Positions 28,980 to 32,859 of a stretch of 64,000 nt of DNA are shown here, piece after piece. The stretch lies in IMG/VR virus record IMGVR_UViG_3300031949_000028, positions 1,009 to 65,008 of that record, one strand, 5' to 3'. Source of the DNA: a virus. Taxonomy: Duplodnaviria > Caudoviricetes. Every line of letters begins with the position of its first letter. The stretch's first letter is position 1. A model generated the notes under the pieces. It was not told the origin of the DNA, ran no database searches, and saw only the letters and a list, made by a program, of their open reading frames with translations. The translations under genes and the position numbers were made by a program.

Positions 28980-29101
28980 TGCGGTACCCAGAAGTTCGGG
29001 GCTTTCACTGCGAGTCGGATCGCGAGCACGATCGACACGAGGACGATCACGACCACGAACGACTTGAAGAGTGGGCCGGCTTGGCCGTGGCTCTTACTCA
29101 T
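28976..29101 (-). CDS. 41-aa antisense membrane peptide
   Basis: MSKSHGQAGPLFKSFVVVIVLVSIVLAIRLAVKAPNFWVPH. Confidence 0.5.
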   Translation of the reverse strand: MSKSHGQAGPLFKSFVVVIVLVSIVLAIRLAVKAPNFWVPH

Positions 29102-29237
29102 GGCGTTCGATAATCCCGTTCCCACTGTTCGCACTGACGTTGGTTGTACCCGTCGCACGCGGGGGCAAAGCGTGAGCCTGCTGCGTAAAGCGTCCAGCCA
29201 GCGATGGCTACCAGGGACAGGGCCGCGACGATTTGCA

Positions 29238-30014
29238 TTGCTTTTCTCATGGGCCAGATCCTCCGTTGGGAAGGTAATAGTACCCGGAATCGTCGGGTTG
29301 TTCTGTGCGTTATGTCTTGCCCATGCCCAAGCGGCTGCTCCGACGTTTGATGAGGCGCCTGCCGGTACTGGGACGGTGGTCGGCGATCCGGCGTTATTTA
29401 CCTCCTATGCCTCGGCTGTTGCTGGGGCGACGCTTGAGATTGCCATCCGTGTCAACGGCACGGGAGACAATGTAGTCGGTTGCAGCGACTCGACCAACGG
29501 CGCGTGGACGGAAGTTGCCCAGGCCGACAATGGCGCTGCTAATTTCCAGGTGTGGAGATTTTATAACTCCGCATCAGGTGCCATTGCCGGAGTGCAGTGC
29601 GACCTCACTAGTTCGCTCACGTACCGAGGGGTATCAACTGCCTACACCGGGGCAGAGACAGCTAGCGCCATTGAGGCGATCACCACTGGCACGTTCGCCT
29701 CGACGACCTCGGTCACGACCTCGAACATCGTCACGACGTATACCGACGAGCTGACGCTATGCCACATCGCGCTAGACGGCAACTCTACGATCGACCCGGA
29801 GAGCTCGGAGAACGAGCGAACCGAGACGAGCACCAGAGTTCAAGAGCAGGACAAGGACGCCACGGCTGCCGGGACGTTTACACATTCTTGGACACTCGGT
29901 ACCGCTGCGGCTGGGTCTTATATTTGTTTCGGACTGAAGTCTACGACCTCGGTACTTTCTGGTGGTTTCAACCCAATTCTCGGCCCGACCTCGTTACCTG
30001 GGAGCGTTCAATGA
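29238..30014 (+). CDS. secreted beta-sandwich protein (module A1)
   Basis: start uncertain (TTG 29238; frame open from 28980); signal IVGLFCALCLAHAQA; Thr/Ala-rich; ends GGFNP. Confidence 0.6.
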   Translation: MLFSWARSSVGKVIVPGIVGLFCALCLAHAQAAAPTFDEAPAGTGTVVGDPALFTSYASAVAGATLEIAIRVNGTGDNVVGCSDSTNGAWTEVAQADNGAANFQVWRFYNSASGAIAGVQCDLTSSLTYRGVSTAYTGAETASAIEAITTGTFASTTSVTTSNIVTTYTDELTLCHIALDGNSTIDPESSENERTETSTRVQEQDKDATAAGTFTHSWTLGTAAAGSYICFGLKSTTSVLSGGFNPILGPTSLPGSVQ

Positions 30015-31096
30015 AGCGGCTCGTACTAGTCGCGCTTGCGTGTATCGCAATGCTGCCTGTACTTGCCGACACCTACAAAGGTGACTTCTTACTCGGCGAC
30101 ACGGTGCGCAAGGTTTACAGCCTTTCGACCACGGCCGGTGCGGACGTAGAGCGAACCGTTGCCGGAACAGCCTCATGCGTCGAGGACGGAGGAACGACTG
30201 AGATAACGGCTGGAGTTACAGACACCGGCACGACTGAGTTCGATGGCGTCGTCGGTAAAAACTTGCTAACGATCGTAGCTACAGCTGCGAATGGATTCGA
30301 GGCCAGCAAGGATTACGACTGTGGCGTACGGGCTTCTACGTTGAATGGCGTCACTGCGTCGTACGAAGTCGTCTCGTTCTCAATCGAGAACCGTTCTGAT
30401 AGCAGGGGCCGAATTCTCGCGCGCGACACTGCGAACACTGGCAGCACAGTGAGCGTCGTGAACGTCGATACCGCCGGCACGATCACGAGCACGAACCAGT
30501 ACATCGTGAACCGTCTGTGGAACGCGACGGCAGGATGGGACCGCGCTATCACCGCGACCACAACCGGCTCGCCCGACACGATCACGATCTATCCAGACTC
30601 GCCGAGCGCAACCGCCGACAATGACGTGCTGTACATCACGCGCGACATCATCTATCCGATCTCGCTAGACGGCACGGATGTTAACGTCACTAGCTTTGGT
30701 CCGACTCCGGTCACAGTCACTCAGCAGATGGCAGCGAACATTGTTACGCATTACGACAACAATAATACTGCGATCAGTTCAGCGACTGATTTATTGGGGG
30801 TTATCGGGACAAACGTCGCTGCGGCAGCTAACGGTGTGGTGAATGGAGGGGAAAACCTCACGGCATTGTTGCTAGATAACCAAATAGTCGAAGATGCCGG
30901 ATCGACGGACATCACTGCTCGTGGTGCGTTGTCTTTGTTGTTGTCGGAACGACTGGGCGCTTGCGACTTCACGGCTGGATCTCCGGATACCTGGGTCTGC
31001 GAAGACCCAAGCGGAACTGTGACGCGATTCACCATGACGTATGGAACCGATAACGGTGATCGGAGCGTTCCAACACTCGTTCCAGATGCACCTTAA
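30011..31096 (+). CDS. secreted Thr-rich protein (module B1)
   Basis: ATGA overlap; signal MKRLVLVALACIAMLPVLA; YKGDF..GDTV domain. Confidence 0.7.
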   Translation: MKRLVLVALACIAMLPVLADTYKGDFLLGDTVRKVYSLSTTAGADVERTVAGTASCVEDGGTTEITAGVTDTGTTEFDGVVGKNLLTIVATAANGFEASKDYDCGVRASTLNGVTASYEVVSFSIENRSDSRGRILARDTANTGSTVSVVNVDTAGTITSTNQYIVNRLWNATAGWDRAITATTTGSPDTITIYPDSPSATADNDVLYITRDIIYPISLDGTDVNVTSFGPTPVTVTQQMAANIVTHYDNNNTAISSATDLLGVIGTNVAAAANGVVNGGENLTALLLDNQIVEDAGSTDITARGALSLLLSERLGACDFTAGSPDTWVCEDPSGTVTRFTMTYGTDNGDRSVPTLVPDAP

Positions 31097-31267
31097 ATGC
31101 CCAATCGGCAGGAACCAGGAAAGCAGCAGCCTGATAAGCAAGAGCCTGGCAAACAAAGTCCTGGCTCTGAAACTCAAGCGCAGAATTTTGGGCCGGATGG
31201 TCCGTTTCTAGACTTACTGAGTCCCATACACAGCACGTTGGGGATATTTGTTTCTCTTGGCGAATAA
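31097..31267 (+). CDS. 56-aa peptide with QEPGK repeats
   Basis: TAAATG coupling; MPNRQEPGKQQPDKQEPGKQSPG... Confidence 0.4.
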   Translation: MPNRQEPGKQQPDKQEPGKQSPGSETQAQNFGPDGPFLDLLSPIHSTLGIFVSLGE

Positions 31268-31300
31268 TCTGTCTGCCGTACGAGGCACATAGGGAACATC

Positions 31301-31669
31301 ATGCGAAAGGTTATCTCAATCATTGCGCTGCTCGGATTCTCGTTCGCAGCTCAAGCTGCCTTCGACATCACCGCGACGATGCCGAGCACTCTAGGTGCAA
31401 CGAGCTGCCAGCTATACCTGGATGGTGTTGTGGCTGGGGCTACGAAGCCATGCGATTCGGCGAATCAGTATCCGGCGCTGATCGCTAATCCAGGGTCTTA
31501 CGTGTTCACGTACAAAGCGGTGAACGCAACGGGTGAGAGTGCGTTCTCGCCTGCAACCACGGTCAACATTCAGGTCATACCGCCGCCTGGTGATCCGCTA
31601 TCGGCACCTTCAGTCACGGTCACTTGCAATCCAGCGCCATGCAATGTCGTCGTCACGGTCATGCCCTAG
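31301..31669 (+). CDS. secreted Fn3-like protein
   Basis: signal MRKVISIIALLGFSFAAQA; YVFTYKAVNATGESAFS Fn3 strand; two Cys pairs. Confidence 0.75.
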   Translation: MRKVISIIALLGFSFAAQAAFDITATMPSTLGATSCQLYLDGVVAGATKPCDSANQYPALIANPGSYVFTYKAVNATGESAFSPATTVNIQVIPPPGDPLSAPSVTVTCNPAPCNVVVTVMP

Positions 31670-31982
31670 CTTTCGTGTGCTCGTTGATGCGTACGCGGCG
31701 GAGCTGATTCGTGCAGCTCTTATTGAGCATGGCTCGGTGGCGAAGGCAGCTAAAGCGTTGGGCTTGTGCCGCACTTACTGCTACAAACTTTTGCATCGGT
31801 ACGGCATTCGCTGGTCAAGCGATGCTGAGTTGGACGCCGCCGACGCAGAACACGGACGGAAGCGCGCTCACCGATCTAACGAGCTATCGGGCGTACTGGA
31901 ATTGTGGAAGCGGGACGGGCTATCCGTTCAGCGAGACGTTCGCAGCTCCAGCAACGACTCGCACGATTACCGGGCTACCTGA
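31644..31982 (+). CDS. Fis-type HTH ORF overlapping the next gene
   Basis: ELIRAALIEHGSVAKAAKALGLCRTYCYKLLHRYGI matches the Fis/HTH_8 consensus. Confidence 0.45.
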   Translation: MSSSRSCPSFRVLVDAYAAELIRAALIEHGSVAKAAKALGLCRTYCYKLLHRYGIRWSSDAELDAADAEHGRKRAHRSNELSGVLELWKRDGLSVQRDVRSSSNDSHDYRAT

Positions 31983-32859
31983 TGATGGCGGTACGTGTTA
32001 CTTCGCTCTGTCAGCGATCAACAGTGGCGGAGTTGAGAGTGCTGTTTCAAACGAGGCGAGCAAGCTACTGCCGGTCGTTGCGGTCGGAGACCCGACAGTC
32101 GGTCCGACGATCACGTGGACCGAGAGACTAGCGATGGCTGAGCCGACCTTCGTCGAGTATGACGAGTCAACTTATAGCGACATTGGCCCTACTGACGAAC
32201 TCGCCTCTGCTTCTACGTGGCAGACCGGCGACATTGTTTTAGTTTTTGGTGGTCACAGTACCAACGACGCTGCGAATCAGCTCGGGACTCCGACAGTTAC
32301 GAGCGGAAGTGGGACCGGACTTACGTTCTCCCTGTTGGCAAGCGTCAATAATGCGGCAGGCAGCAATGACACCCAAGTATTTCTCTGGACAGCGACCGCG
32401 GCTGGCAATGGGTCTGGAGCAATTCAATCCGTTACGTCGGCTACAGCTAATGGCCTGCGGTCGGGTATTTCAGTACTCATTTATCGAGGATCTGACGGTT
32501 TAGGGACGCCGGTCACGCTGGACGGCTCGACGGCCAAGACGATATCGGTCACGCGCGCTCAAGCAAATTCGCACGTAGCGCTGATGCTGGCGGATTGGGC
32601 TCAGGTCGGCGATGTCACGGTTACTGCAACTCCGAGCGGAACAGTTAGGCACGCCTCCGCTGAAGCGGGCCAAGCCGATTTCTTTGTCGTTACTTTTGGA
32701 GATCAAGGAGCGACCGGAACCACTTCCTACGGCATCACGGATCACACCGGCACGGTCGATATGTCGGGCATCGCCGTTGAGATCAAGGGCACGGCTGGCG
32801 GCAGTGCGTTTAATCCGGCTCCTGTCGTCAATTACCAGGCCATGATGCGGGCTAACTGA
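31729..32859 (+). CDS. secreted Fn3 plus beta-sandwich protein (module A2)
   Basis: signal MARWRRQLKRWACAALTATNFCIGTAFA; LSWTPPTQNTDGSALTDLTSY Fn3; ends SAFNPA; possible internal start at MAEPTF. Confidence 0.75.
   Translation: MARWRRQLKRWACAALTATNFCIGTAFAGQAMLSWTPPTQNTDGSALTDLTSYRAYWNCGSGTGYPFSETFAAPATTRTITGLPDDGGTCYFALSAINSGGVESAVSNEASKLLPVVAVGDPTVGPTITWTERLAMAEPTFVEYDESTYSDIGPTDELASASTWQTGDIVLVFGGHSTNDAANQLGTPTVTSGSGTGLTFSLLASVNNAAGSNDTQVFLWTATAAGNGSGAIQSVTSATANGLRSGISVLIYRGSDGLGTPVTLDGSTAKTISVTRAQANSHVALMLADWAQVGDVTVTATPSGTVRHASAEAGQADFFVVTFGDQGATGTTSYGITDHTGTVDMSGIAVEIKGTAGGSAFNPAPVVNYQAMMRAN

Follow-up and report, generated by a model that had tools for sequence, protein, structure and literature searches.

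The window analysed here is a 64,000-nt stretch of viral DNA that makes up most of a roughly 65-kb phage contig. A run of genes, several of which encode proteins with N-terminal signal peptides, occupies 26.5 to 34.8 kb, and the terminase, portal and major head protein genes lie at higher coordinates (Table 1). Within this run, just past a gene for a 122-aa protein, two reading frames occupy the same bases of the same strand: frame 0 encodes an HTH protein, and the +1 frame encodes the N-terminus of a larger Fn3 protein. The 122-aa product has a signal peptide followed by a beta-rich body, and the genes neighbouring in the cluster retain clear signal peptides. A 200-nt gap (31097-31300) precedes the 122-aa gene, and a scan of this gap returned no terminator-like hairpin. 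At two of the related loci described below, GC-rich hairpins followed by T-runs, a terminator-like arrangement, lie just upstream of the 122-aa gene (L001:2700-2857 and L172:710-924). The hairpin in L001 comes after NinG/NinB-type early genes, and the layout of the two resembles the lambda pR'-tR' late-operon entry point. Upstream of the 122-aa gene and of the operon, neither an operator nor a promoter motif proved to be conserved; a Shine-Dalgarno sequence was the sole common element. Elsewhere in the cluster, the ORF listing gives window ORFs 29064..30014 and 29759..31096 a 256-nt overlap; the probable real start of the latter is at an internal MKRLVLVALACIAMLPVLA signal peptide near 30011, so this second overlap is most likely only apparent.

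Table 1. Positions of the overlapping genes, their parts and landmark genes in the window
Feature	Position	Strand	Remarks
Upstream 122-aa gene	31301..31669	+	stop TAG 31667-31669; ORF listing
HTH gene, frame 0	31677..31982	+	GTG 31677; 101 codons + stop (31980-31982)
HTH gene, alternative start	31644..31982	+	ATG 31644; 112 codons
Fis/NtrC-type three-helix DNA-binding domain	31677..31814	+	46 aa, ends ...YGIRW; Pfam, AF2, Foldseek
Basic tail of HTH protein, over Fn3 codons	31815..31979	+	55 aa; probably a passenger extension
Dual-coded stretch	31711..31982	+	272 nt, about 90% of HTH gene
GGAG Shine-Dalgarno	31700..31703	+	7 nt before GTG 31711; inside HTH codons A-E
Fn3-protein gene, frame +1	31711..32859	+	382 aa (P0001); GTG 31711, alternative ATG 31729
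Signal-peptide-like N-terminus	31711..31812	+	basic n-region, h-region, AFA|G
Fn3 domain	31813..32130	+	AF2 beta sandwich, Foldseek
C-terminal domain, ~240 aa	32143..32856	+	common as a stand-alone viral protein
Small terminase subunit	35270		
Large terminase subunit	42250		
Portal gene	45208		
Major head protein	49664		

A preliminary description of this DNA, made from its letters, had proposed that both frames are coding, and the two strings that it quoted are both present, the first of them (ELIRAAL...HRYGI) in frame 0 at 31701-31811. It had placed this frame close to the Fis/HTH_8 consensus. The Fis-like fold stood up, but the family model did not: HTH_8 (PF02954) matched at E=0.008-0.01 with 16 bits, below its cut-off of 22, whereas HTH_50 (PF18024, TyrR/Fis-like DNA-binding domain) matched at E=2.2e-7 with 30.9 (or 29.2) bits against a cut-off of 27. 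Among the HTH sequences of the nine loci considered below, the window's was the only one to pass a Pfam cut-off. An AF2 model built with the nine-sequence alignment folds residues 1-45 into three helices (pLDDT about 90) and leaves residues 46-101 disordered. Foldseek matched this model best to the DNA-binding domains of Fis, TyrR, NtrC4 and NtrC1, with rmsd values of 0.7-1.5 A over 44-46 residues. Superpositions on 3e7l, 2m8g, 1ety and 1g2h had probabilities of 0.96-0.99 and E-values of 0.3-1, and a search of PDB sequences with the family profile ranked NtrX, FleQ and Fis first at E=0.05-0.9; these E-values are non-significant because the domain is short. The window's domain scored 46-50 bits against an HMM of stand-alone homologues. 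A word-based search with the 112-aa ORF returned no homologue and a search of PHROGs nothing for the window's HTH, whereas the profile search found thousands of relatives. The window holds a single copy of the family. No Shine-Dalgarno sequence precedes either candidate start (GTG 31677 or ATG 31644), which suggests that the gene is probably translated by coupling to the gene upstream.

The Fn3 protein is read from the +1 frame, which is open from 31708 and reads MARWRRQLKRW...GTAFA at 31729-31812, followed by LSWTPPTQNTDGS. Signal peptides were judged by inspection of their n-, h- and c-region features. By this measure a basic n-region, a hydrophobic h-region and small residues at -3 and -1 are found at all nine loci and in an outgroup (L171), with a weak h-region in the window. 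In the model of the Fn3 protein, AF2 places a helix at residues 6-25 and then a beta sandwich. The putative signal peptide that had been thought plausible from the letters shows its three regions by inspection, and its hydrophobicity exceeds the null expectation at seven of the nine loci, but the window's own copy is the weakest of the nine (maximum KD 1.51, p=0.26 against the synonymous-codon null described below). Likewise, the domain that follows it had been called a canonical Fn3 domain. The sandwich fold bears this out, with Foldseek matches to FN3 domains at probability 1.00 and TM of about 0.66-0.70 on the target, but Pfam found neither Fn3 nor any other match in the 382-aa protein; PF00041 is borne by more distant relatives. 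The C-terminal domain of about 240 aa (MAEPTFVEYDESTF..., window:32143-32856, P0003-P0065) is a widespread viral module that occurs alone, at about 240 aa, or fused to varied N- or C-terminal parts, and for which Pfam and PHROGs hold no family.

The two frames are aligned such that helices 2 and 3 of the HTH domain, with the turn between them, share their DNA with the n- and h-regions of the signal peptide, and the codons for AFAG and GIRW are the same bases. We found the same arrangement at eight further diverged loci of uncultured phages, all of them metagenomic (L001, which equals L166 and L167; L002; L003; L164; L165; L168, which equals L169; L170; and L172). These relatives were reached through homologues of the Fn3 protein and of the upstream 122-aa protein, whose gene served as the syntenic anchor (34 orthologues, aligned), and their flanking proteins are 45-66% identical to those of the window. 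At all eight, an open frame lies across the signal-peptide codons and encodes an HTH of the same type, ending in Y-G-I/V/L-R-W over A-F-A|G; no stop codon interrupts it in any relative. In the third frame, every locus carries 1-6 stops per 100 codons. Recurrence at eight further loci makes the arrangement more than a chance one. The HTH start lies at or just after the stop of the 122-aa gene at all nine loci, either overlapping that stop as GTGA (L002, L164, L168) or TTGA (L165, L170), or 4-15 nt past it (L003, L172, the window and L001). Such overlap of start and stop is the usual signature of translational coupling. The HTH products of the relatives begin M-T-Y/L-R-E, as in the stand-alone family described below; the start in the window lacks the family's first residues M-T-Y-R-E and is a few residues shorter.

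Gene callers annotated the HTH ORF at none of the nine loci. In L164 (6372-6520) and L165 (1178-1338) they also drop the signal peptide and start the Fn3 protein at a Met or Val after the cleavage site, and the overlap in L172 (1286-1668) and in the P0139 contig is assigned to an ORF on the opposite strand, which is spurious in L172. Near the mature N-terminus L002, L003 and L168 offer no start codon, and at these loci the Fn3 protein must therefore take in the hydrophobic segment. In L170 (3378-3900), the Fn3 frame comes to a stop after ...WRCGPGRATHPK, and the HTH frame stays open and runs into the second Fn3 half (...TGYPSQVIVPA...), so that a one-base shift fuses the HTH to the remaining Fn3 protein. 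Seen in a single contig, this may reflect a mistake in assembly, a recent mutation or a genuine fusion.

L171, the most distant relative of the cluster, is the only one seen to lack the HTH; its upstream protein is only 38% identical to the window's. Its Fn3 gene (L171:3318-3800) encodes a short canonical signal peptide (KLLALLALVPQLASA|G) and starts at a TTGA over the upstream stop. The cluster can therefore exist without the HTH, and a single outgroup cannot root the event. We found no HTH in an alternative frame of 162 distant Fn3 loci from IMG/VR and GTDB genomes, and the overlap is thus not general to PTQNTDGS-type Fn3 genes. Neither IMG/VR nor GenBank phages contained relatives of the upstream gene and the HTH, and a metagenome scan returned the L001 contig alone.

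The family to which the HTH belongs is large. When a HMMER profile was built from the nine HTH domains and run against 1.84 billion representative proteins, 3834 matches were obtained at E<=1e-3, most of them stand-alone proteins of 58-90 aa that match from residue 1. Two matches carry the source name 'DNA-binding NtrC family response regulator'. The closest comparison was between the HTH of L172 and the stand-alone protein P0164, with 63% identity over 46 aa (E=4e-18). P0164 is a 65-aa protein encoded by the non-overlapping last gene of another phage's late operon (L173), in an unrelated context. Most single-copy members end in a short H-R-G-x-W motif that is lost in the overlapped versions, and P0254 and P0281 have long basic tails and might represent further unrecognised overlaps. 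Some members (P0155, P0156, P0159, P0166, P0177 and P0215) are tandem duplicates with two HTH copies in 115-150 aa, which hints that the single-copy proteins may act as dimers. We infer that the HTH protein binds DNA, probably as a dimer, since tandem-duplicated forms occur naturally in its family; most likely it is a DNA-binding regulator or an architectural protein made from a late-region operon. The preliminary description had also raised the possibility that it regulates the exported cluster; the missing conserved operator and the unrelated setting of P0164 speak neither for nor against this. Among GenBank phages, the one match was OR851144.1, and we rejected this record as a source of a phage HTH gene, as the matching DNA is host glrR-glnB sequence. 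The region concerned (L176, OR851144.1:481-1824), labelled 'Salmonella phage S.Kent 1-2-1' (UNVERIFIED_ORG), comprises the 3' end of a gene for a GlrR-type enhancer-binding protein, then glnB (MKKIDAIIKPFKLDDV). One stand-alone member of the family is 50% identical to the C-terminus of the host GlrR-type protein.

We measured selection on each frame by resampling the synonymous codons of one frame and scoring the other. When the signal-peptide protein was kept constant, the real HTH exceeded all 300 null sequences at nine of nine loci when scored with an HMM of 100 stand-alone homologues, themselves found with the profile of the loci. With the HTH protein held fixed, the peak hydrophobicity of the +1 frame exceeded the null at seven loci (p=0.0002-0.02), the other two being L170 (p=0.066) and the window (p=0.26). 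Combined over the nine loci, these tests gave Fisher p=7e-14 for the HTH and p=4e-11 for hydrophobicity, values that overstate independence because the loci share ancestry. As negative controls, we read the +1 frames of the gene for P0164 and of a host GlrR-type DNA-binding domain; both have stops and are not hydrophobic, so the signal-peptide reading is not a by-product of encoding this HTH.

Conservation was then compared among the three frames without gaps, in a manner that favours no frame. Over the 27 shared codons, the HTH frame was the best conserved (mean identity 38%, BLOSUM score per site 1.88), followed by the signal-peptide frame (31%, 0.83) and the third frame, which has stops (21%, 0.0). 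Over the next 34 codons the Fn3 frame dominated (57%, 3.19), and the HTH tail frame (27%, 0.95) was conserved no better than the third frame (34%, 0.74). The most variable nucleotides are those at codon position 3, of the HTH frame upstream of the cleavage site and of the Fn3 frame downstream of it, so that the dominant frame changes exactly at the cleavage site. The tail itself is predicted by AF2 to be disordered (pLDDT below 55) and does not align with the C-terminal H-R-G-x-W motif of the stand-alone family. Across the loci, the HTH frame extends 42-56 codons into the Fn3 domain, and conserved G-L-P-D codons are the point at which it stops in most of them. Its open length compared with chance under the Fn3 codons gave p=0.17-0.35 per locus. 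We considered this openness as evidence for selection on the basis of the product of these values (about 1e-4.6) and rejected it, as the properly combined value is Fisher p=0.18. Together, these results show that selection acts on both frames beyond the constraint that each imposes on the other, with the exception of the HTH tail, which carries no selection at the amino-acid level.

On this evidence we think it likely that the locus comprises two real genes, overlapping in different frames of one strand within a phage late-region operon, and we put comparable confidence in both being functional in the family. The impression from the letters that both frames look functional is in keeping with their conservation and selection in nine diverged loci. 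Both frames would be translated, the HTH gene probably by termination-reinitiation coupling at the stop of the 122-aa gene. The bases that specify helix 2, the turn and the recognition helix, read one base on, would then give the n-region, h-region and AxA site of the next gene's product, an exported Fn3 protein. Past its domain, the HTH frame would run for ~55 codons over the first Fn3 strands and yield a disordered basic tail, ending at the first stop that the Fn3 codons happen to permit.

The HTH and the Fn3 domain would both be old, each belonging to a widely distributed family. The signal peptide most likely arose by overprinting of an older HTH gene, as a hydrophobic +1 extension, and the tail would have been overprinted on the Fn3 gene as a -1 basic extension. 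Signal peptide and tail are lineage-specific and so are the de novo parts by a phylogenetic criterion (PMC8227390); their compositions follow the published rule, by which de novo frames at +1 are hydrophobic and those at +2 basic (PMC8227390). The preliminary description had allowed for either direction, and the birth of a signal peptide on a DNA-binding gene is the better supported of the two, in that the HTH family is large and the signal-peptide sequences are lineage-specific.

Several other readings of the locus have to be weighed against this one. The weak h-region of the window, together with an in-frame ATG (31822) just after the putative cleavage site, means that the window's Fn3 protein could start there and remain unexported. 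The HTH would then be real and the protein would begin MLSW..., with the signal peptide at 31729-31812 a decaying remnant, and the functional overlap would be confined to the dispensable tail of the HTH over Fn3 codons. The h-region is indeed the least hydrophobic of the nine and lies within its synonymous-codon null, the ATG is 3 codons past AFA|G, and callers picked the equivalent downstream start in L164 and L165. However, the +1 frame is open from 31708 with GGAG 7 nt before GTG 31711, the n-region is strongly basic, the AFA|G motif is intact and neighbouring genes of the cluster keep their clear signal peptides; moreover, the gene caller of the source database chose the 382-aa form (P0001). 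We regard loss of export in the window as unlikely, and our confidence that its own Fn3 protein is exported is somewhat lower than that in the two-gene arrangement, because its signal peptide is the weakest of the nine. Alternatively, the HTH frame could be an untranslated relic, conserved merely through the constrained codons of the Fn3 protein and its signal peptide. The absence of any annotation by gene callers, the absence of a Shine-Dalgarno sequence for the HTH of the window and the lack of selection on the tail would all fit such a relic. Against it, conservation over the shared codons is higher in the HTH frame than in the signal-peptide frame, and at nine of nine loci the codons actually used retain the HTH far better than synonymous signal-peptide alternatives do; moreover, the family N-terminus M-T-Y-R-E and the GTGA overlap of start and stop are kept, and identity to a stand-alone homologue reaches 63%. 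An untranslated relic is therefore very improbable.

Programmed ribosomal frameshifting, or readthrough from the upstream gene, could in principle join the frames into one fusion protein. In L170 the HTH frame does continue into the second Fn3 half, which it can do because the Fn3 frame is interrupted there, and in L003 the HTH lies in the frame of the upstream gene with a TAG codon alone between them. Yet the relation between the frames of the upstream gene and the HTH varies among loci (+1, -1 or 0), no conserved slippery site was seen in the alignments, the fusion of a cytoplasmic DNA-binding domain to exported domains would make no obvious sense, and L170 is a single contig that may carry an assembly error or mutation. 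Of all the readings, we give a single fused product the least credence. A further reading accepts both genes and takes their overlap as a translational device beyond mere compaction, in which reinitiation at two near starts in different frames would set, or allow conditions to tune, the ratio of regulator to exported protein. The HTH start lies at -3 to +15 from the upstream stop and that of the signal-peptide frame at +2 to +42 in most loci, so that ribosomes ending the 122-aa gene might reinitiate at either; those on the HTH would run through and occlude the Fn3 start. We consider this role doubtful, a little more so than the loss of export in the window. If true, the device would couple the output of a regulator inversely to the export of the cluster proteins.

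The two-gene arrangement has partial counterparts in known systems. The Rz/Rz1 spanin genes (embedded in lambda, overlapped in P2) are likewise phage late-operon genes that share bases in different frames of one strand, with the N-terminal export signal of the second gene encoded within the coding sequence of the first, and callers routinely miss one spanin partner or choose a wrong start (PMC6139136). Spanins, however, are a mutually binding pair of an inner-membrane protein and an outer-membrane lipoprotein, whereas this locus pairs a cytoplasmic HTH protein with an Fn3 protein bearing a putative SPase-I-type signal. Unlike spanins, this locus has no lipobox (AFA|G has no Cys at +1) and no transmembrane i-spanin, its products give no sign of interaction, and the small gene is the upstream one and about 90% overlapped. 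We therefore rejected an identification as a two-component spanin, given the soluble HTH partner and the missing lipobox, and retain an analogy of architecture only.

The HTH has in common with the C-terminal domains of Fis and NtrC proteins (1ety, 3e7l, 4l5e, 1g2h, 5m7n) a three-helix fold and the pattern ...E..YL...L...G....AA..AG..R..fY.ll...G. It differs from them in being a phage-encoded lone domain, with neither an AAA+ or receiver domain nor the N-terminal beta-hairpin arms of Fis, and it differs from its stand-alone family in that a disordered tail replaces the short C-terminal H-R-G-x-W motif. As in reviewed cases of viral overprinting (phiX174 and RNA viruses; PMC8227390), a widespread ancestral part is combined with a lineage-restricted part in a shifted frame, the de novo part being hydrophobic at +1 and basic and disordered at +2. 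Unlike those cases, each gene here consists of an old domain plus a new extension over the old domain of the other, and a functional module, the signal peptide, lies over a folded recognition helix and not over a disordered region. Our search of the literature found no paper that combined overprinting, an HTH, a signal peptide and a phage.

The locus is a clean new example of overlapping genes; it is not a new kind of system and involves no new mechanism. It offers an unusually clear example from nature of a folded DNA-recognition helix and a signal peptide sharing the same bases, with selection measurable on both, and an identifiable non-overlapping relative serves as a control. Methods for the detection or design of overlapping genes could use it as a compact test case. 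It shows how a signal peptide may originate de novo from the +1 frame of a gene already present, and it documents a whole family of small phage HTH genes that standard gene callers miss wherever its members are overlapped (0 of 9 annotated).
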